Of a stretch of DNA of 64,000 bases, positions 35,007 to 46,834 are shown piece by piece. The stretch lies in NCBI GenBank assembly GCA_963847705.1, contig CAWKBC010000021.1, positions 160,001 to 224,000 on the forward strand. Direction: 5' to 3'. The number at the start of each line of letters is the position of its first letter. The stretch's first letter is position 1. Made by a program: the position numbers and the translations under genes. Below the pieces are notes generated by a model. That model ran no database searches. It saw only the letters and a list, made by a program, of their open reading frames with translations, and had not been told where the DNA came from. Origin of the DNA: an uncultured Pseudomonadota bacterium (GTDB lineage: Bacteria; Myxococcota_A; Polyangia; Fen-1088).

Positions 35007-35981
35007 GTGTCCGCGCGCCGGCCCCTGCCTCCTTACGATCCCCAGCTGGCCCTCCTCGCGAAATCCGCGCCCGAGGGTGACGGGTGGCTCCACGAGGTCA
35101 AGTTCGACGGCTTCCGGATCGGAGCCGCCGTCGAGCACGGCCGGGCGACGCTGCTTTCGCGGCGCGCGAAGGACTGGACGGCGGAGTTTGCCTCCGTCGC
35201 CGCGGCCGCGGCGCGGCTGGGGGCGAAGAGCGTTTTACTGGACGGTGAGGTTGCCGCCGTCGGGAGTGACGGCCGCACCTCGATGGGCGGGATGCACGAG
35301 GGCTCCAACGGATCCACGATCGCGTACTTCGTCTTCGACTTGATTCACCTCGACGGCGAAGACCTGACCGGGCGGCCCATCGAAGAGCGAAAGGCGCGCC
35401 TCCGGGACCTGCTGGGCCGCGCACCGCCCGTGCCGCTTCGTTATGTCGACCACGTCGTCGGCGGCGGCCCCGCGTTCTTCGAGGAGGCCTGCCTCCACCG
35501 CCTCGAAGGAATCATCTCCAAGGCGGCCGGGTCGACCTATCGCCCCGGCTCCCGGAACGCGACCTGGCAGAAGGTGAAGTGCGTCCTCCGGCAGGAGTTC
35601 GTGATCGGCGGCTACGAGCATTCGACGGTCGGAACCCTGGGCGCGCTCTGGCTCGGCTACTACCTCCCGGACGGCAGCCTGGAGTTCGCGGGGAAGGTCG
35701 GCACCGGTTTTCAGCGCGAGTCGGCCGGTTTGCTGAAGGCGTTCAAGAAGCTGGAACGCGACACCCCCCCGTTCGGTCCGGGGCTACCGACGGGCTTCCG
35801 GGTGCGGGACGCGGTGTGGCTCGAGCCGACGATGGTCTGCGAGGTCGAGTTCATGGAGTGGACCGGGCACGGCCACATCAGGCATCCGTCGTATCAGGGG
35901 CTGCGGCCGGACAAGGAGCCGGGCCAGGTGGTGCGGGAGGTTGCGGGGAAGGTGCCGGTGTTGCCGAAGGGGTTGCGGTAA
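35007..35981 (+). CDS. ligD: ATP-dependent DNA ligase, stand-alone LigD ligase domain
   Basis: HEVKFDGFR, LDGEV, FDL, EGIISK, WQKVK, RHPSYQGLRPDK. Confidence 0.9.
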   Translation: MSARRPLPPYDPQLALLAKSAPEGDGWLHEVKFDGFRIGAAVEHGRATLLSRRAKDWTAEFASVAAAAARLGAKSVLLDGEVAAVGSDGRTSMGGMHEGSNGSTIAYFVFDLIHLDGEDLTGRPIEERKARLRDLLGRAPPVPLRYVDHVVGGGPAFFEEACLHRLEGIISKAAGSTYRPGSRNATWQKVKCVLRQEFVIGGYEHSTVGTLGALWLGYYLPDGSLEFAGKVGTGFQRESAGLLKAFKKLERDTPPFGPGLPTGFRVRDAVWLEPTMVCEVEFMEWTGHGHIRHPSYQGLRPDKEPGQVVREVAGKVPVLPKGLR

Positions 35982-36125: not shown

Positions 36126-36422
36126 ATGGCGACCAAGTTCAGCGATTTCATGGCTGAGTTGAAGCGCGAGGCGGAGGCGGAGGCGGAGGGGCCCGAGGCG
36201 GTCGCTGAGCTGAAGCACTTTCGCGAGCGCTATCGCCTCGCCCGTCGCTTCGCCGAGGCGCGTCGGAGGCGCGGCTGGACGCAGAAGAAGCTGGCCCAGA
36301 AGACAGGCCTCAACCAGAGCGAGATCTCGACGTTCGAAAACGGTCAGGCGAATCCCACCTACCGGACGCTTCAGACACTCGCAGCGGCGCTGGGTGGGAA
36401 GATCGAGCTGGTCATCGGGTAG
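36126..36422 (+). CDS. XRE-family HTH protein (HigA-like antitoxin)
   Basis: WTQKKLAQKTGLNQSEISTFENGQANPT. Confidence 0.88.
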   Translation: MATKFSDFMAELKREAEAEAEGPEAVAELKHFRERYRLARRFAEARRRRGWTQKKLAQKTGLNQSEISTFENGQANPTYRTLQTLAAALGGKIELVIG

Positions 36423-36487
36423 GGATCGAAGTTCGCGGAGGGATTTGAGGGGGCCTGGTAAAGGGGCCGGCTATAATCGTTCGCGAA

Positions 36488-36718
36488 ATGACGATCCTGC
36501 GCGGGCACGTCGAAGGCGGCCGAGTCGTCCTCGACGAGGAGTGCGATTTGCCGGAAGGGGCGCAGGTCGAGATCGCGGTCCTGAGCGAAGAGGATGAGAT
36601 GACACCGGAAGAGCGGGCGGAGCTCTTGGCCTCGATCGATCGCGGCCTCGACCAGGCGGCGCGGGGCGAAGGAATACTCGCCGAAGAAGTCCTGCGGCAT
36701 CTGCGCTCGCTCGGATGA
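36488..36718 (+). CDS. putative orphan antitoxin (AF2212-like N-terminus, ParD-like C-terminus)
   Basis: GHVEGGRVVLDEECDLPEGAQVEI and SIDRGLDQAARGEGILAEEVL. Confidence 0.6.
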   Translation: MTILRGHVEGGRVVLDEECDLPEGAQVEIAVLSEEDEMTPEERAELLASIDRGLDQAARGEGILAEEVLRHLRSLG

Positions 36719-36921
36719 GATCCCGGCGGCGGCTGGCAGCCGACAACGGCGCGCGCCGCGAATCCGCCTTCAGGACGCGCCGTAGCCCGAGCCAGATCTA
36801 GCCGTCCTGATCTCAGGCAACCCGGCACGCGGTCGGTACGAAAACCGCAGGACTTCACTGCGACGACCGAGTCCGTAGACAGGTGGCCAACGATGTGTAA
36901 TATTTTTGGTACGGGATCTTG

Positions 36922-37305
36922 GTGACCCGTCGAACCCAGCCCGTCCTGGGGGTGCGGTTCTACCGGACGCCGACAGGAGCTCGTCCAGTGCGGGACTGGC
37001 TCTTGTCCCTATCGAGAGAGGTACGACGAGAAATTGGCGCCGACATCGGGAGAGCTCAATGGCAATGGCCGGTGGGAAAACCCCTGGTCGACGGGTTCGG
37101 CGGCGGCCTCTACGAAGTCCGGACGTCGCACGAGGGTGAGCAGTACCGCGTGCTCGTCTACGTCGATGGCGACGCGTTGGTCCTGGTCCACGGCGAGTCA
37201 ACCCGGGGGACGATGGTGCTCGTGCATGGGATTCACAAGAAGACGCAGAGGACGCCGGCCGCGGCGATCGCGCTCGCGCGGAAGCGCATGAAGGAACGGA
37301 CATGA
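36922..37305 (+). CDS. RelE/HigB (Gp49-like) toxin
   Basis: FYRT..G..PVRDWL, GLYEVR, YRVL, LVHGIHKKTQRTP. Confidence 0.88.
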   Translation: MTRRTQPVLGVRFYRTPTGARPVRDWLLSLSREVRREIGADIGRAQWQWPVGKPLVDGFGGGLYEVRTSHEGEQYRVLVYVDGDALVLVHGESTRGTMVLVHGIHKKTQRTPAAAIALARKRMKERT

Positions 37306-37628
37306 AGAGGCAAACCAAGGACGAGCTCGCAGAGATGTTCGAGGAGCTCGGCGAGCTCGAGGAGGTTCGAGCGCTCACGCGGAAGAAGGTCCTCGCCGAC
37401 GGGCTCCGGAAGGCGATGAAGTCGCAGAAGGTCACGCCTGCCGAGATGGCCCGGCGCATGGGGACGAGCCGGCCGACCGTGTACCGGTTGCTCGACCCCG
37501 CGGAGCGTGGGGCGACGCTGGACACCCTGGAACGGGCGTCACTCGCGCTGGGCCTCGATCTCCAGATCAGGCTGGTGCCGGCGGGTAGGCCGAAGGGACG
37601 CCGACAGTCCAGCCGCCGCGCCGCGTAG
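37302..37628 (+). CDS. XRE-family antitoxin (HigA-like)
   Basis: ATGA overlap with toxin; AEMARRMGTSRPTVYRLLDP...TLDTL. Confidence 0.88.
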   Translation: MKRQTKDELAEMFEELGELEEVRALTRKKVLADGLRKAMKSQKVTPAEMARRMGTSRPTVYRLLDPAERGATLDTLERASLALGLDLQIRLVPAGRPKGRRQSSRRAA

Positions 37629-37789
37629 GCGATTGCCCCCGCCTTGCGCCGCGGCTATGCTCGAACTGTGAAGTCAGCGCTCCGGATCGGCCTGTTCGCC
37701 TCCTCGCAGCCGCGCTATTAGCCGCGGCGACGTCGGCGATCCGTCTGTCGAGCGCCAGAGTGAGAGTCGTTTCACGCGAGGAGTGCCCC

Positions 37790-38484
37790 ATGTCCGTCAC
37801 GTCCGTTCCGTCCGTCATCGTCGAGATCCGCGCCGCCGAAGGGGGCGAGGACGCCAAGTCCCTGGTCGACGAGCAGCTGCGCATCTACGCCCGCCGCGCG
37901 CTCCACCACGGTCTTTGACCTGGAGGTCGTCGAGGCGCGGCGGGGCCTCTGCGTCCTGCGCGTGAGCGACCGAGGAGGGGCGCGCGCCGAGCCCCTGTTC
38001 CGCGACGAGGCCGGCGGCCACCGCTGGCAGCGCGTCCCGCGCAACGAGAAGCGCGACCGCGTCCACACCAGCACCATCACCGTCGCCGTGCTCCCCGAGC
38101 CAACGGAGGTGGAGGTGCGCGTCGCGGAGCGGGATCTGGAGTGGTCGACCTGCTACGGCACCGGCCCCGGCGGCCAGAAGCGCAACAAGACCGAGTCGAC
38201 GGTGCTGCTGACGCATCGGCCGTCGGGGTTGCAGGTGCGGTGCGAGACGTCGCGCTCGCAGCAGCGGAACCGGGTCGTGGCGCTGGGGTTGTTGCGGGCG
38301 CGGCTGTGGGCGCTGGAGGCGGCGCGGGTGGGGGAGGCGCGCGCGGCGGAGCGGCGGGGGCAGGTGGGGTCGGGGATGCCGGGGGACAAGCGGCGGACGG
38401 TTCGGGCGCAGGACGGGACGGTGGTGGACCACGTCGCGGGGAGGCGGTGGGAGCTAAGGGGGGTATTTGAGGGGGGCTTGGTAA
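37790..38484 (+). CDS. short RF1-like peptide chain release factor homologue, predicted +1 programmed frameshift
   Basis: RBS GAGGAG; frame A IVEIRAAEGGEDAK...HHGL ends CTT TGA C (37913-37919); +1 frame DLEVV...GGHRWQRVPRNEKRDRVHTS...GPGGQ...RSQQRN...GSG..DH; likely end YLRGAW* needs one G less in run 38458-38463. Confidence 0.85.
37913..37919 (+). other. prfB-type +1 ribosomal frameshift motif CTT-TGA-C
   Basis: Exact motif, in frame, at the junction of two RF-homologous segments. Confidence 0.75.
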
Positions 38485-38553
38485 ATGGGGCGCACTCAGC
38501 TAGAGACGTCGAGGACAGCGAGGGTCCGTTCGCAGTACTATCAGCCCGCCGTT

Positions 38554-39495
38554 GTGAAGGTCTACGTCGCCGTCACCGACAAGGACTGGTTTCAGTTTCT
38601 TGGCCGCCTCAAGGAGCGGCGTGAGGCGGCGGGGGACACGTTAGACGAAGTGAATTTCTGGCAACCCGGGGGAAAGCAGCTCTTCAAGGCGCAGCAGCCT
38701 GGGGATCTCTTCCTCTTCAAACTGCACAGCCCCGACAACTTCATCGTCGGTGGAGGGTACTTCGGGCACGCGTCGCTGCTGCCTGCGCCTCTCGCGTGGG
38801 AGGCCTTCGGGCAGATGAACGGCGCCGTCTCTTTCGATGAGATGCAGATGCGGATCGCGAAGTACCGCCGGATCTCGGACGTCCGCGAGCACTTCACGGT
38901 CGGGTGCATCCTGCTGCAGAGCCCATTCTTCCTGGAACCGTCCCGTTGGATTCCCGCGCCGACGGACTTTCACCTCAATATCGTGCAGGGGAAGGGCTAT
39001 GACGGTTCCTCGTCGGAAATGCAGCGCGTGGTAGCTGCGCTCGGAGCGCCGGGCTTGACCGGGCTGCCGATCGGATTGGCCGAGGTCGATGGACCTATGT
39101 TCGGCGATCCGACGCTGGTTCGTCAGCGCCTAGGCCAAGGAACATTCCGCGTGCTGGTCACGGACACGTACGAACGGCGATGCGCGATCACGCGAGAACG
39201 CACGCTCCCGACGCTCGAAGCTGCTCACATCCTGCCCGTCGGCGAGGGGGGGAGGCACCGCGTGGACAACGGCCTTCTGTTTCGGTCGGATGTGCACCGG
39301 CTCTTCGACGCTGGTTACGTGACCGTCACACCCGACTACCGCTTTCGCGTCAGCAGCAGAATCAAGAAGGAGTTCGAAAATGGGAAGGAGTACTACGCGA
39401 TTGACGACCGGCCGCTGTGGCTTCCTGCCAATCCAGCCCTGCAGCCGAACAAGGAGTTTCTCTCCTGGCACTCGGAGGCGCGATTCGTGGGATAG
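38554..39495 (+). CDS. HNH endonuclease (putative modification-dependent restriction enzyme)
   Basis: VAVTDKDWF...EVNFWQP N-domain; RLGQGTFR, CAIT, LEAAHI, NGLLFRSDVHRLFD; alternative ATG at 38485. Confidence 0.9.
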   Translation: MKVYVAVTDKDWFQFLGRLKERREAAGDTLDEVNFWQPGGKQLFKAQQPGDLFLFKLHSPDNFIVGGGYFGHASLLPAPLAWEAFGQMNGAVSFDEMQMRIAKYRRISDVREHFTVGCILLQSPFFLEPSRWIPAPTDFHLNIVQGKGYDGSSSEMQRVVAALGAPGLTGLPIGLAEVDGPMFGDPTLVRQRLGQGTFRVLVTDTYERRCAITRERTLPTLEAAHILPVGEGGRHRVDNGLLFRSDVHRLFDAGYVTVTPDYRFRVSSRIKKEFENGKEYYAIDDRPLWLPANPALQPNKEFLSWHSEARFVG

Positions 39496-39504
39496 GGTCG
39501 GCCC

Positions 39505-39849
39505 ATGACACCCCTCGACGAGCTTCGCGGAGAGCTTCGAGCTTTCGTAACGGCACGCGACTGGGAACAGTTCCACGACCCGAAAAATCTGGCCATGCTG
39601 GTGGCGTCAGAAGCCGGGGAGCTGGTGGCGGAGTACCGATGGATCCGAAGCGACGAGGCGGACGCTCACTCTCGCGAGCCGGCAACGCGCGAACGGATTG
39701 CAGCGGAGGTAGCCGATGTGGGGATCGGACTGCTGCTTCTATGCGAAAGGATCGGGTTGGATCTGGTGGAGGTGATGCGGGCGAAGGTGGCTAAGAATGC
39801 CGAGCGGTATCCGGCGGAGGCGGCGCGGGGACGGGCGGAGCGACCATAG
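39505..39849 (+). CDS. MazG-like nucleotide pyrophosphohydrolase (dCTPase-like)
   Basis: RDWEQFHDPKNLAM...EAGEL...EVADV...KNAERYP. Confidence 0.92.
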   Translation: MTPLDELRGELRAFVTARDWEQFHDPKNLAMLVASEAGELVAEYRWIRSDEADAHSREPATRERIAAEVADVGIGLLLLCERIGLDLVEVMRAKVAKNAERYPAEAARGRAERP

Positions 39850-39868
39850 GGTGGAGTGACGAGAGTCT

Positions 39869-40105
39869 TCAGGTTTCTGAAGCAATCAGATCAAGGAACT
39901 CGAGCACAGTTAGACCGCATGCCAGGGCAGCACCCTCGAGGAATCCGCCTGCGTACGCGGCCGACGCTGGCAAGGTTTCCAGGTTCTCGACGACGCGTGT
40001 GCCGAAAAGAGCATCGGCATCTACCCCGGTGACCGTGGTCAGAGTGTTGAGCGCTTCTTCGACGGCTTCACGGAGTTCCATGGGAACGGGAGGTGTGGTG
40101 TCCAT
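39869..40105 (-). CDS. small acidic hypothetical protein (78 aa)
   Basis: RBS AAGGGAG before MDTTPP; helical, acidic. Confidence 0.55.
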   Translation of the reverse strand: MDTTPPVPMELREAVEEALNTLTTVTGVDADALFGTRVVENLETLPASAAYAGGFLEGAALACGLTVLEFLDLIASET

Positions 40106-40228
40106 TCGCGGGTCTCCCTTGGTTCGAGGGCAGGGCTGCGATCTCTGTTGGACGATAGCCTGAGCGGCATCGTGAGCAATCTCGAAATCGGCCGCGAGCG
40201 GACCGTCGTGACGTGCGATGCTCCGCTC

Positions 40229-43200
40229 GTGGCACGCCCGCTTCCGGAGGGAGTCTACGAGCATCCAATCACCCGGGAACTCGAGGCGGCGTTGCAGGCG
40301 CTCGATGCTGATCGACAACAGCTTGGCGCGATCGGAGACGCGGAGAGTCCCGCCGTCGTCGCTCGACATGTGGCACAGGAACTTGCCCGCGTACTTGACG
40401 GCACCGATATCAAGGACCGTGCGGAGGTCGCCCGTGCGCTAGGTGATCGACTGCTCGCGGAGATTGCGACGTTCGCCACGGCTCACCACCAGGACGAGGT
40501 GCCGGTCCTCGACCAACGACTCGCACCGCCGCCGCGTCGACTGCTCTCGATTCACAAAGGCCGACCGCCGGCTCGTCCAGAGACACCATTTTCGACATCC
40601 ACCCTGCTCACCCGGAATCGTGCTGAGCCGGCCCTTGGACGCGAGCTTGCATGCGAGCTAGGCACGGCCAATCGTGTAGATGCCATCGTCGCCTTCGTTA
40701 CGGTGGGCGGAGTTCGACTGCTCGGCGAGGCTCTTGAAGAATTCAGCGCTCGGGGCGTCGGACTTCGGTTTCGCTTGCTGACGACGGTCTTCAGCGGGAC
40801 CACAGAGATCGAGGCGATGGACCGCCTTGCACGGCTGCCCGGGGTACAAATCAAGATTTCCTACGACGTACGTCGGACACGACTTCACGCCAAGGCATGG
40901 CTCTTTCATCGCGACAGCGGCCTGTCGACGGCGTATGTCGGTTCGGCCAACCTTACGTCGACGGCGCTCGGCGGTGGCCAAGAGTGGATGGTCAAGGTCT
41001 GCGCGGCCGACCTCCCTCAGGTGATCGAGAAATTCGAAGGCACCTTCGACAGCCTCTGGGAGGATCCGGAGTTCGAGGCATACGATCCCGGTCAGGAAGA
41101 AGGTCGCACGCGCCTGCGATCCGCCCTGGGCGCCGAACGTTCGGGCTCGGACGTGCCGACTTCGCTGGTCTCGCTTCGGCCGCTCCCATTTCAGGAGGAG
41201 ATCCTCGATCGGCTAAGGGTCGAACGCGAGCTTCACGGGCGCCGCCGAAACCTTATCGTTGCCGCCACCGGCACTGGCAAGACTGTCATCGCCGCATGTG
41301 ACTACGCGCGCATCGCTGCCGCATTAGGCACGCGTCCCCGACTGCTCTTTCTCGCCCATCGGAAGGAGATCCTTCTGCAAGCGCGCGACACGTTCCGTCA
41401 TGCAATGCAGGACGGTGCCTTTGGTGAACTTCTGGTCGACGGCGACCGCCCTGAGGCTTACCAACACGTCTTCGCTACAATCCAGAGCTTCGCCGCGGCG
41501 GGGCTGATCGAGCGCCTCGGGCCCGCCCACTTTCACCACGTCGTCGTCGACGAGTGTCACCATCTCCCAGCGCCGTCGTATCAAAGCGTCGTTCTGCGCC
41601 TGCAACCCGACATCTTGGTCGGCCTCACTGCCACACCCGAACGCAGCGACGGGAAGTCACTGCTGCCCGACTTCGACGGTCATGTCGCGCACGAGCTTCG
41701 CCTGTGGCAAGCGCTAGACCAGCAACTTCTGGTTCCGTTCGAGTACTTCGGGATCTCAGACACCACGGATCTGCGAAGCGTCCGTTGGACACGCACCGGT
41801 TACGACCAGGCAGCGCTCTCCGACCTCTACACGGGCAACGATGCCCGCGCCGCGCTGGTGCTGGCACAACTGGCCCGCCGCGTCGGCGACCTGCGCATGA
41901 TCCGCGCACTCGGATTCTGCGTCAGTGTCGAGCACGCTAAGTTCATGGCCACGCAGTTTTGCATTGCCGGCACTCCTGCCCTGGCCGTCCACGGTGATTC
42001 GCCTGCCGACGAGCGCGCGCGCGCCGCCGCCCGTTTGCGTGAGCGCGAGGTGAACATCGTCTTTACGTGCGACCTTTACAATGAGGGCGTCGACCTCCCA
42101 TTCGTGGATTCGCTCCTGTTGTTGCGGCCCACTCAGAGCGCGACGCTATTCCTTCAACAGCTCGGCCGCGGTCTGCGCCATCACGAGCGTAAGGAGTCCT
42201 GTCTAGTTCTCGATTTTATTGGCCAACAGCATGAGCGTTTCCGCTTCGATGGTCTTTTCAGCGCCATGACAGGTGTGCCTCGTGCCCGGCTGACTAAAGC
42301 GGTCGCGGACGGCTTCCCCTATCTCCCGAGCGGCTGCACGGTCCAACTTGACCGCGTCGCTCGCGATGAGGTCCTTCGCTCGCTCCGACAGACGGTCGCC
42401 ACCGCCCGTACGATGGTGCCTGAACTCAAAGAGCTCGCCGCCGAGAAATCGGGCGCGTTGTCATTGCGCGAGTACCTCGCCGCGACAGGTCGCGAACTCG
42501 AAGATATCTATGCGGCCGGCGGCTGGACGACATTGAAGCGCCGGGCGCGCTTGGCCGACGGCGATGATGCCGAGACGGAGGATCTCAGTCGTCGACTTGG
42601 ATGGTTACTACACATCGACGAGCCTGCGCGGCTGCAAGCCCAAGGGTTGGCCATCTCCCTACCTGACGGCGGCCAGGTCGACGGGGCACTCTCAGCAATC
42701 GATAAGAGGCGGATCGAGATGCTCGACGCTCAGCTTTGGCCTCGTGGTGAGGTCCGATCCGCCGAGGAGACAGTACATGCCCTGACGGAGCGTCCAGGCA
42801 TTGCGGCGGAGGTGGGTGAATTACAGGAGGTCCTAAACGAGCGGATAGTCGTTGCGAGCGCGATCTATCCGGTACCGGAGTGGCCGCTCTGCCTGCATCA
42901 CCACTACTCGCGGCGGGAGATCGTGGCCGCAGTAGGGTTTGTTGGACAGGGGGAGAAGAAGAAGAGTCTTCAAGGAGGCATCCTCACGCTGAAGGACCGT
43001 CCGTGCGAGTTGCTTTTCGTTACGCTCGACAAGACCGGTGCTGGCTTCTCGCCCACCACCCGCTATCGAGACTACGCGATCAGCCGAGACCTGTTTCACT
43101 GGGAGACGCAAGGGGCGGCGAGCGTATCGCGCCCGAGTGGGCGTCGGTATATAGAGAGCCCAGGCAACGGTATGACGTTCCAGCTATTCGTCCGGCTGGG

Positions 43201-43342
43201 GCCAGACGACGCGTTCGCGTACCTGGGCCCTGCGCTTTATGTGCGACACGAGGGCGACCGACCGATCGCGATCACTTGGAAGTTGGAGGCCCCGATGCCC
43301 GGGGGACTCTTTGAGAAATACGCGACTTTGGCAACGTCGTAG
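40229..43342 (+). CDS. PLD-nuclease/SF2 helicase/DUF3427 protein (SauUSI-like type IV restriction enzyme)
   Basis: LHAKAW...GSANLT (PLD), AATGTGKT, DECHH, TATPER, QQLGRGLR, YRDYAIS..LFHWETQ; upstream in-frame start at 40148 possible. Confidence 0.9.
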   Translation: MARPLPEGVYEHPITRELEAALQALDADRQQLGAIGDAESPAVVARHVAQELARVLDGTDIKDRAEVARALGDRLLAEIATFATAHHQDEVPVLDQRLAPPPRRLLSIHKGRPPARPETPFSTSTLLTRNRAEPALGRELACELGTANRVDAIVAFVTVGGVRLLGEALEEFSARGVGLRFRLLTTVFSGTTEIEAMDRLARLPGVQIKISYDVRRTRLHAKAWLFHRDSGLSTAYVGSANLTSTALGGGQEWMVKVCAADLPQVIEKFEGTFDSLWEDPEFEAYDPGQEEGRTRLRSALGAERSGSDVPTSLVSLRPLPFQEEILDRLRVERELHGRRRNLIVAATGTGKTVIAACDYARIAAALGTRPRLLFLAHRKEILLQARDTFRHAMQDGAFGELLVDGDRPEAYQHVFATIQSFAAAGLIERLGPAHFHHVVVDECHHLPAPSYQSVVLRLQPDILVGLTATPERSDGKSLLPDFDGHVAHELRLWQALDQQLLVPFEYFGISDTTDLRSVRWTRTGYDQAALSDLYTGNDARAALVLAQLARRVGDLRMIRALGFCVSVEHAKFMATQFCIAGTPALAVHGDSPADERARAAARLREREVNIVFTCDLYNEGVDLPFVDSLLLLRPTQSATLFLQQLGRGLRHHERKESCLVLDFIGQQHERFRFDGLFSAMTGVPRARLTKAVADGFPYLPSGCTVQLDRVARDEVLRSLRQTVATARTMVPELKELAAEKSGALSLREYLAATGRELEDIYAAGGWTTLKRRARLADGDDAETEDLSRRLGWLLHIDEPARLQAQGLAISLPDGGQVDGALSAIDKRRIEMLDAQLWPRGEVRSAEETVHALTERPGIAAEVGELQEVLNERIVVASAIYPVPEWPLCLHHHYSRREIVAAVGFVGQGEKKKSLQGGILTLKDRPCELLFVTLDKTGAGFSPTTRYRDYAISRDLFHWETQGAASVSRPSGRRYIESPGNGMTFQLFVRLGPDDAFAYLGPALYVRHEGDRPIAITWKLEAPMPGGLFEKYATLATS

Positions 43343-45835: not shown

Positions 45836-46834
45836 TCAGGCGTAGCGCTTGGCGGCCCGCCGCAGCTCCCCCGCCACCGCCTCCCGCAGCTCCGCCGGCT
45901 CCACCACCCGCGCGTCCCCTCCGAACCCCAGCACCCACCCCACCACCTCCGTCGTCCCCCGCACCTCCATCGTCATCTCCAGCCCCGCCGCCGTCCGCTT
46001 GAACCGTTGCGTGGGGTGCCACAGGACCCGCTCCACGTAGCGCGCCACCTTCGGGTCGAACAGGATCCGCACGCGCGTCACCTCCGACCCGCGGATCAAC
46101 CCGAAGGCCCCCTCGGTCAGCTGCTCGGGGCGGTAGTCGGCCGGGTAGTCGAACGCGTCGCCCCGCAGCCACTCGACCTCCCGGAACGCATCCAGCGCAA
46201 ACGTCCGGAGCGCGCCCGCGTGCCCCTCGCTCCGCCCCACCAGATACAACCCCTTCTTGTAGACCATCAGGGTGTACGGCTCGAGGACGAAGGTCTTCCT
46301 GCCGCCCGAGACGCTCTCGTGGGTGACCCGCAGGCGCTCCTCGCGCAAGAGCGCGGTGACGATGTCGTTCACGTCCTCGATCCGCCCCTCGTAGAGGTGG
46401 CGGGCCTCGTTCACGTCGAAGACCTTGCGATCGAGGTTGCGGGCGGCGGCGAAGTCCTTGCGGCGGAGCTGCGCCTCCAGCTTGCCGAAGAGATCGTCCA
46501 GGTCCTCCTTGAACCCGGTGCCGGCCAGGAAGTCGAACACGCGGCGGGAGAGAAACAGCGCCACCATCTGGGCGGTCGTCAGGGTCACCGTCTGCTGGCG
46601 GGCGCTGGCCATCAGGCGCCAGACCTTGCGCCGCCCCTCGACCTCCTCGTAGAGCGGCTCGCCCGCCATCTGCAGCGCGCGGATGTAGCGGATCGCCGTG
46701 CGGACGCTGACGGCGAACCGCTCGGCGATGTCGTAGACGCTGGCCCCCTCGCCGCTGTTGAGCAGGCCGCGCACCTCGGCGAGGCGGCGGGCGGGGGCGT
46801 AGCGCTCGGCGCGGGGCGGTCGGCGGGCGGGCAT
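45836..46834 (-). CDS. WYL-domain transcriptional regulator (wHTH-WYL-WCX; PafB/DriD-like)
   Basis: IAERFAVSVRTAIRYI HTH; LEPYTL...LYLVG...RTFALD; WVLGFG...VVEPAELR. Confidence 0.92.
   Translation of the reverse strand: MPARRPPRAERYAPARRLAEVRGLLNSGEGASVYDIAERFAVSVRTAIRYIRALQMAGEPLYEEVEGRRKVWRLMASARQQTVTLTTAQMVALFLSRRVFDFLAGTGFKEDLDDLFGKLEAQLRRKDFAAARNLDRKVFDVNEARHLYEGRIEDVNDIVTALLREERLRVTHESVSGGRKTFVLEPYTLMVYKKGLYLVGRSEGHAGALRTFALDAFREVEWLRGDAFDYPADYRPEQLTEGAFGLIRGSEVTRVRILFDPKVARYVERVLWHPTQRFKRTAAGLEMTMEVRGTTEVVGWVLGFGGDARVVEPAELREAVAGELRRAAKRYA

Follow-up and report, generated by a model that had tools for sequence, protein, structure and literature searches.

An RF1-derived release factor without domain 1, with a CTT-stop frameshift site and a short upstream reading frame: a likely backup for slow termination

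Introduction

Among bacterial class-I release-factor genes, recoding is known from prfB, in which a CUU-stop-C site has to be passed by a +1 frameshift (PMC12421855, PMC5009743). The accessible part of a 2025 survey reports no programmed shift in prfA and no TAG gate, the latter in none of 8,164 prfB sites (PMC12421855), and a 2016 review, in the text available, calls both readthrough-gated RF2 genes and an RF1 counterpart unknown (PMC5009743). According to the accessible part of PMC1586002, domain 1 of class-I factors is needed for RF3 and not for release. The words “frameshift” and “phage” are absent from the accessible text of the PrfH paper PMC6514570, and the accessible text of PMC7162821 describes huge phages that encode “release factor 1 and 2” with no recoding noted. 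Related literature, likewise available in part, includes PMC3711429, bioRxiv 2021.08.26.457843, PMC13166195 and PMC5776981.

The system described here has a short upstream open reading frame (uORF) in addition to a frameshift gate. In attenuation of the ermC type and in tnaC, a ribosome that is stalled on a short upstream reading frame controls the downstream gene. The gene was noticed in a window of 64,000 nucleotides (positions 160,001 to 224,000 of contig CAWKBC010000021.1, assembly GCA_963847705.1). By sequence comparison, its family is a new RF1-derived branch that lies outside RF1, RF2, PrfH and ArfB as defined. We propose, with a probability of roughly 0.55, that it encodes an RF1-derived factor without domain 1, gated by CTT-stop and a short uORF, which likely serves as a backup when RF1 or RF2 is slow. 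In the literature covered, with subscription papers mostly outside its scope, no description of such a gated RF1-derived family was found, in line with what the preliminary description of this DNA had assumed, and the supplements of PMC6514570, PMC7162821 and PMC12421855 may list family members.

Results

Gene layout and the copy in the window

The preliminary description had read a ribosome-binding site (RBS), an ATG and 42 codons up to CTT TGA C, and an RF1 alignment that continues through GGQ in the +1 frame. The former is seen directly in the sequence (Table 1), and the latter is confirmed by matches to Pfam PCRF, Pfam RF-1 and the RF1 model. The first part, ORF0, covers the beginning of RF1 domain 2 with the GG loop at the tip of alpha5, and its last letters are GGT CTT TGA C. 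With CTTT read as one step, a stretch of 228 amino acids results, which matches positions 101-194 of Pfam PCRF and the whole of Pfam RF-1. As RF1 models match this protein only from position 105 on (match start 105-113), domain 1 is absent, as had been claimed. With 177 bits for RF1 (cut-off 400), 111 for RF2 (370), 65 for PrfH (167) and 30 for ArfB (100), the protein stays below every curated cut-off, and an AlphaFold2 model of residues 1-228 (pLDDT 88) gives TM scores of 0.89-0.90 against ribosome-bound RF1 and of 0.64 against PrfH. The GGQ motif is 100% conserved in all family groups, in a set for which the locus parser itself required GGQ.

Table 1. Features of the gene and its leader (window positions).
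Feature	Position	Strand	Basis
Box TATGCT, -10-like; 6 nt separate it from the leader GTG	37656..37661	+	sequence
Leader uORF, 17 codons, GTG start, ends in TAG followed by C	37668..37721	+	homology boundary, coding selection
Pyrimidine-rich stretch in the uORF; predicted pairing partner of the RBS region 37776-37785	37697..37707	+	MFE and centroid folds
RBS of the release-factor gene, GAGGAG	37778-37783	+	sequence
ORF0, 42 codons from ATG 37790, ends at TGA	37790..37918	+	sequence, RF1 profile matches
+1 shift site CTT TGA C (CTT 37913-37915, TGA 37916-37918)	37913..37919	+	sequence
+1-frame body, domains 2/4 and 3	37917..38484	+	profile matches, AlphaFold2 model
PxT-equivalent motif, PRN in the window versus PPT/PPN in the family	38037..38045	+	alignment
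GGQ catalytic motif	38169..38177	+	present in every family group

As written in the assembly, the +1 frame extends to 38624. Its run 38458-38463 has one G more than both independent DNA runs that cover it and than relatives, and the gene therefore most likely ends at TAA 38482-38484 with a protein of about 230 amino acids. The motif PRN, on which the preliminary description had relied, does not hold for the family: G38041 is C in all four independent DNA runs (none of them from the window's own sample), which turns PRN into PPN, so that PRN appears to be private to the window or an error. GMPG is a further private change.

The host is a soil bacterium whose nearest named relatives are Polyangia. 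Its genome (85% complete) contains intact RF1 and RF2 genes and a separate ArfB-like gene, and its prfB, with a canonical GGGGG-CAT-CTT TGA C (G000:C27, about 641773), offers an internal comparison for the gate. PrfH and RtcB were not found in this 85% complete genome. In a sister genome (G021), the copy L007/L099 has neither RBS nor start, is deleted across the GGQ region and appears to be a broken copy or an assembly fault. An 86-base second gene fragment (L439, G001:C10 586905-586990) lies about 2 kb upstream of an intact copy.

Family, distribution and descent

In a profile search, genome contigs gave 149 relatives, viral contigs 300 and metagenomes at least 454. The best 80 of each were kept; together with the window and three more genomes they make up the classified set of 244 loci, in which some contigs are present in two collections and which comprises 182 distinct site contexts. 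A +1 shift is required in 201 of these loci, 20 have in-frame stops, 13 are continuous and 10 could not be parsed. Carriers are myxobacterial chromosomes, large phages and plasmids; the phage and plasmid branches had escaped the preliminary description. The distribution is patchy, with the gene in 6 of 26 genomes of the genus, and a search of the phylum, in which split family genes and RF1 were not distinguishable by score, gave family-type matches in about 4 of 401 genomes. Carriers keep their own RF1 and RF2. Gene callers mostly give just the +1 part of the gene, and RefSeq splits the Variovorax plasmid copy in two; this readthrough-type copy (L300, annotated as two genes) and another one (L103) sit on Variovorax and Cupriavidus megaplasmids. 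Uncultured phage records of 485-735 kb (L326-L330) carry one copy of the frameshift type and four with one or two in-frame TGA codons.

In a tree of 47 rows (quick IQ-TREE) that includes RF1 and PrfH, all family members form a single clade (99*), which joins RF1 (98*) to the exclusion of three PrfH rows. This bears out the earlier view of a distinct RF1-derived factor and argues that domain 1 was lost independently of PrfH. The statement that the gene is not prfH and is not accompanied by rtcB also stood: the protein reaches 65 of the 167 bits required for PrfH, its clade is separate, and rtcB was found neither among 187 neighbouring ORFs nor in the 85% complete host genome. Family members start 2-20 codons ahead of the first strand. 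Long, fused or domain-1-bearing members were not seen among 166 matches of 413-2000 amino acids, the top two of which are chimeric RF1, and this is weak evidence. The PDB contains no member, and Pfam, NCBIfam and PHROG have no dedicated family for this release factor.

The break in the reading frame

Could the break simply be an error? In three of the four independent DNA runs (X1, X2, X3; none from the window's own sample), contigs bridge the shift site without a gap and with at least 31 letters on each side, and the same break is found in 201/244 related loci, which rules out a sequencing slip at the TTT, the point at which the preliminary description had seen a risk. Contigs from RNA runs span the leader and the shift site, and such contigs cannot show transcription or a start site. 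Both parts of the gene are under purifying selection: over 51 disjoint pairs, pN/pS is 0.27 for ORF0 in frame versus 1.74 off frame, and 0.12 for the +1 body, with an off-frame range of 1.7-3.9 for both parts. The extra G near the 3' end of the assembly, the private changes PRN and GMPG, and the deletions in the sister genome's copy would suit an assembly error or a pseudogene. A site that is common to 201 loci, gap-free bridging by independent contigs and selection on both frames make such an origin of the break hardly credible, and for the family as a whole these data refute it; that the window's individual copy is decaying is unlikely. That the recoding is programmed is nearly certain.

The frameshift gate

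CTT directly precedes the stop in 201/201 shifted loci and does so at the same codon in 196 of them, while among the leucine codons downstream of the gate it accounts for a background of 231/2446. A prfB-type site at a new position, namely the start of domain 2, had been recognized in the window, and this is confirmed. GGAGG lies at exactly 3 nt before CTT, the spacing of prfB, in 116/201 shifted loci. That an internal Shine-Dalgarno (SD)-like element is missing had been noted as a caveat. For the window this is correct: its clade has lost the element and is among the 27/201 shifted loci without one. The caveat does not extend to the family. The +4 base is C in 84% of the shifted loci. Homologues are shifted in the large majority, as the preliminary description would have it, and continuous in 13/244 loci, which are scattered over the tree (12 changes), so that the gate can evidently be lost.

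The gate stop is TGA in 138, TAG in 57 and TAA in 6 of the 201 shifted loci (49/24/2 in genome loci). TGA and TAG differ even between near-identical proteins, and on a FastTree of 242 rows the TAG label requires 34 changes, of which starred branches force at least 15. It had been suggested that the factor is made when UGA termination is weak, and this is too narrow, because TAG and TAA gates as well as branches with in-frame stops exist; the gate does not appear to be specific for UGA, and any stop codon seems to serve. Codon-specific protein variants that match the gate stop were considered as well, and none was left after tree correction: among the best 14 of 754 tests that were examined, no residue tracked the gate stop beyond the one coded by the site itself.

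Branches with in-frame stops

A second viral scan was seeded with the in-frame branch, and its best 80 loci contained 10 duplicates, 1 unparsed locus and 69 distinct parsed loci, of which 58 have in-frame stops, 7 are shifted and 4 are continuous. One of the shifted loci (L340), among the best matches of the readthrough branch, carries CTT TGA C and an SD-like element at codon 41, which is a second frameshift position. The 58 in-frame loci carry TGA (46), TGA+TGA (9), TGA+TAG (2) or TAG (1). In 37 loci, an in-frame TGA lies at or beside a column in which RF1 has Trp in 92%. An alternative code in which TGA means Trp (code 4) was nevertheless ruled out: the in-frame stops are confined to the first ~55 codons, TGG is used elsewhere in the same genes, five such genes end in TGA, and TAG replaces TGA in three in-frame loci. 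Of 81 neighbouring long ORFs, 20 end in TGA. A coding-coverage test was uninformative on code 4, as coverage goes up no matter which stop is taken out. The history of the gate includes at least four separate moves to readthrough, and the stop codon was kept as the gate each time. An ATG directly follows the in-frame stop in L200, L202-L205, L209 and L126, where, besides readthrough, re-initiation could yield a protein of two chains. Near a TGA-gated copy (L264), a tRNA with CTA anticodon was called.

The leader reading frame

The window and its two closest relatives are homologous between 37668 and 38483-38484, which is exactly from the leader GTG to the terminal TAA. This upstream layer, the stop of which is matched to the gate stop, is new and had been missed by the preliminary description. 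As the -10-like box is only 6 nt away from the GTG, the leader transcript would be leaderless; a full sigma-70 promoter match was not found at the window leader. In 12 pairs, the uORF has a pN/pS of 0.38 in frame versus 1.35-1.54 off frame. Leaders were collected with a rule that is blind to stop identity (a box, a start, 6-20 codons and a stop 45-135 nt upstream), after a first weight matrix had collapsed onto one clade and was rejected. With a box score that was hand-tuned after the sequences were seen, and among loci with fewer than 3 tRNAs, the rule finds leaders in 36/73 genome loci versus 4.3 in shuffles and in 18/55 metagenome loci versus 5.2, whereas viral loci show no enrichment (7/39 and 6/33 versus 6.1 and 5.8). 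The leader was found in only about half of the chromosomal loci; the rule does not find it in Minicystis or Pyxidicoccus, and in Archangium only at threshold.

The uORF ends in TAG C, TGA C or TGA G in 48/49 leaders. A conserved arrest peptide was not found in these 49 leaders, which have 8 different last residues, nor was a Rho-type bias of C over G seen after the leader stop (C 0.35, G 0.33), and Rfam has no match to the leader. The leader stop equals the gate stop in 46/51 loci (independent pairs 6:0, p about 0.03), with TGA at both in 24/51, while the terminal stop does not covary with the leader or gate stop (1.8:1.8). The window is among the mismatches, with a TAG leader and a TGA gate. 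Host stop bias explains part of this match, because the share of TAG among the stops of neighbouring genes is likewise raised around TAG gates (0.43 versus 0.29), but this bias appears too small for a match of 90%.

Might the stops be fixed dampers that hold a toxic factor at a low, constant level, without any sensing? The stop is free to change, in proportions that roughly follow host usage (49/24/2 versus 59/32/9%), and the SD-like element was lost in 27/201 loci, all of which would suit a damper, but the gate stop switches in step with the leader stop and not with the terminal stop, and the moves to readthrough and the second shift position all retain a stop as the gate. We consider fixed damping very improbable.

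In MFE and centroid folds, the uORF is predicted to pair with the RBS and the start codon and may thereby mask the RBS. This masking is weak by several measures. The overall fold z is about 0 for the window leader, and the predicted pairing is therefore weak in this copy; it is stronger in other clades. Across 15 related leaders, a whole-leader hairpin taken from the fold of one member is compatible with 79.7% of cells versus at most 40% when slid, and RNAalifold finds only 4 pairs. When the leader stop is covered, the cost of opening the RBS drops by 2.2 kcal/mol versus 0.4 in shuffled leaders (34/49 loci). The opening cost of the free RBS does not differ from shuffles (p 0.20), and the RBS pairs to the uORF with 0.41 versus 0.31 in shuffles, a weak difference. 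The Wilcoxon tests used in these comparisons ignore kinship.

Codon reading

Apart from PRN in the window, the family has PPT (52-69%) or PPN (25-39%), with PPTE in 64/69 loci of the second viral scan, and the SPF motif of RF2 is absent from the family. In comparison with T. thermophilus RF1, the family keeps G116, Q181, P184, mostly T186, H193 and T194, which we take to be stop-reading residues, and from the RF1-like equivalents of Q181, P184, T186, H193 and T194 only UAA and UAG reading would be predicted. Near the decoding head there are almost invariant changes (T115 to E, E119 to D, V180 to W), and family-specific invariant changes cluster around this head; Asn replaces T186 in 25-39% and Gln replaces H193 in about 40% of the family. 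At the positions of E167, E170, E172 and K177 of RF2, in a numbering counted back from S205, the hairpin of the family has 9 residues versus 13, is less acidic and has Arg in 171/224 rows. The RF2 mutations E167K, E170K, E172K and K177R give UAG and UGG reading (PMC7530605, accessible part), and by analogy with these RF2 mutants, the altered hairpin may relax codon reading also in the family. TAG and TGA gates guard the same protein, for which release at both stops is therefore probable. Mainly by this logic of matched gates, in hosts whose genes mostly end in TGA, codon reading is probably relaxed; reading of both UAG and UGA would be the most uncertain step of our proposal.

Alternatively, the product could be a plain RF1 that takes over UAA and UAG only under the same gating, with TAG gates as RF1-type autoregulation and TGA gates as a proxy that responds to RF2 shortage or UGA leakiness. 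In agreement with this alternative, readthrough is easiest at UGA, the decoding residues are of RF1 type, and phage members mostly end in TAA (46/77; 51/58 in the second viral scan). The clustering of family-specific invariant changes at the decoding head is not expected from it, and as host long ORFs end in TGA (59%), TAG (32%) or TAA (9%), an RF1-only backup behind TGA/TGA gates (24/51) would not relieve the stall that induces it. A plain RF1 is therefore rather doubtful in our view. The gene itself ends in TAA in 30/79 genome loci and 46/77 viral loci, far above the share in host long ORFs.

Neighbourhood

A conserved partner gene was not found among 187 scanned neighbour ORFs (35, 79/148 and 73/115 of those listed), the largest neighbour cluster being an HNH nuclease in 17 loci. 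Phage copies often lie in tRNA arrays (37/77 with 3 or more tRNAs), and Pth2, NADAR, SLOG and HNH genes recur near them. Just upstream of the window copy (36126-37628), there is a toxin-antitoxin-like cluster with an HTH gene, a RelN-like antitoxin and a Gp49/RelE-like toxin with an HTH partner, and about 36420 to 37660 is missing in two syntenic relatives (L032, L099). Downstream (38485-43342), an HNH nuclease, a MazG-like gene and a PLD-helicase-DUF3427 gene look like a defence island. A stand-alone LigD-type ATP-dependent ligase domain (35007-35981) and, on the minus strand, an ORF of 332 aa that looks like an HTH-WYL regulator by eye (45836-46834) are also present.

Such surroundings could point to a codon-independent rescue factor of the PrfH/ArfB kind that acts on damaged or stalled ribosomes in conflicts, with slow termination merely as the alarm. 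The missing domain 1, as in PrfH, and the net charge of the family (+9 versus -2 in RF1) would be in line with this, as would the phage copies among tRNAs with Pth2, NADAR and SLOG nearby and the toxin-antitoxin and nuclease genes that adjoin the window copy. Against a rescue factor, the stop-reading residues are kept, rtcB is found neither among the 187 neighbour ORFs nor in the 85% complete host genome, and the tree places the family with RF1 rather than PrfH, which renders it quite improbable. The absence of RF3 was also considered as a driver and rejected: the host has no prfC over the cut-off, but prfC is present in 5/5 other carriers.

Discussion

How could the two gates cooperate? In the backup mechanism that we favour, a ribosome would start on the uORF, linger at its stop when termination is weak, unfold the leader and thereby free the RBS. 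At CUU-stop, for which the signals are present in the sequence, a paused ribosome with an empty A site would, as in prfB, slip by +1, usually aided by GGAGG 3 nt upstream, and in the other branches a near-cognate tRNA would read through the in-frame stop. The product would then bind the A site, hydrolyze the peptidyl-tRNA by means of its GGQ motif and leave without RF3, and a release at both UAG and UGA would close the gene's own switch. The TAA-rich end of the gene would provide a stop that either host factor can read. The window copy, with its TAG leader, TGA shift site and missing SD-like element, would either require that both host factors are impaired or be a weakened copy. That the family encodes a backup factor induced by slow termination, whether or not it reads like a plain RF1, is quite probable.

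A more far-reaching reading is tentative, with chances that we place somewhat below even. The family would then represent a third stop-codon-reading class-I factor of bacteria that acts at all three stops without RF3, was spread by large phages and plasmids and became domesticated in myxobacteria, where leader and frameshift stop, retuned together to UAG or UGA, would form a two-gate sensor of a specific failure of RF1 or RF2. This would imply that toxins or antibiotics which disable a single release factor await discovery. Is there a natural bacterial factor that reads all three stops, and which agents attack termination in nature? Both questions are testable. Matched leaders and gates would report inhibition that is specific for RF1 or RF2. 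For recoded organisms, a factor that works without domain 1 and RF3 could be useful. For annotation, the family means that hundreds of its loci are split or truncated. It also supplies both missing cases, namely the TAG gate or readthrough gating and recoding on the RF1 side.

With leader-ORF attenuation of the ermC type and tnaC, the family shares a short upstream ORF on which a stalled ribosome would control the gene, but what is conserved is the leader stop followed by C or G, matched to a second gate, and not an arrest peptide. PrfH (RFH) is likewise a class-I factor without domain 1 that occurs sporadically and in conflict settings, as described in the accessible parts of PMC1586002 and PMC6514570; in contrast to it, the family is a separate clade with an RF1-type motif, has no rtcB and is gated by stops. 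ArfB consists of the GGQ domain and a basic tail, whereas the family keeps domains 2/4 for codon reading. The eRF1 genes of Mimivirus and Megavirus are also viral release-factor genes that need readthrough and/or a CUU-UAG/UAA-C frameshift, but they have the eRF1 fold, belong to eukaryotic viruses, and come without a described upstream ORF in the accessible text (PMC3521657). With RF1 (prfA), the family shares domains 2-4, GGQ, the equivalents of Q181, H193 and T194 and a TM score of 0.9; its PxT-type motif is PPT or PPN, and PRN in the window. It differs from RF1 by the missing domain 1, 177 bits versus a cut-off of 400, a shortened acidic hairpin, a patchy distribution and the need for recoding, which for prfA was not seen in PMC12421855 and is called unknown in PMC5009743, according to the accessible texts. 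The closest likeness in control is to prfB, another class-I release-factor gene with a CUU-stop-C slippery site and an SD-like element, which 116/201 shifted loci of the family have at the same spacing (PMC12421855, PMC5009743). In comparison with prfB, the family encodes an RF1-derived protein without domain 1, has its shift site at the start of domain 2, uses a TAG gate in 57/201 loci versus 0/8,164, comes also in readthrough versions and with an upstream-ORF layer, and is an accessory gene besides intact prfA and prfB.
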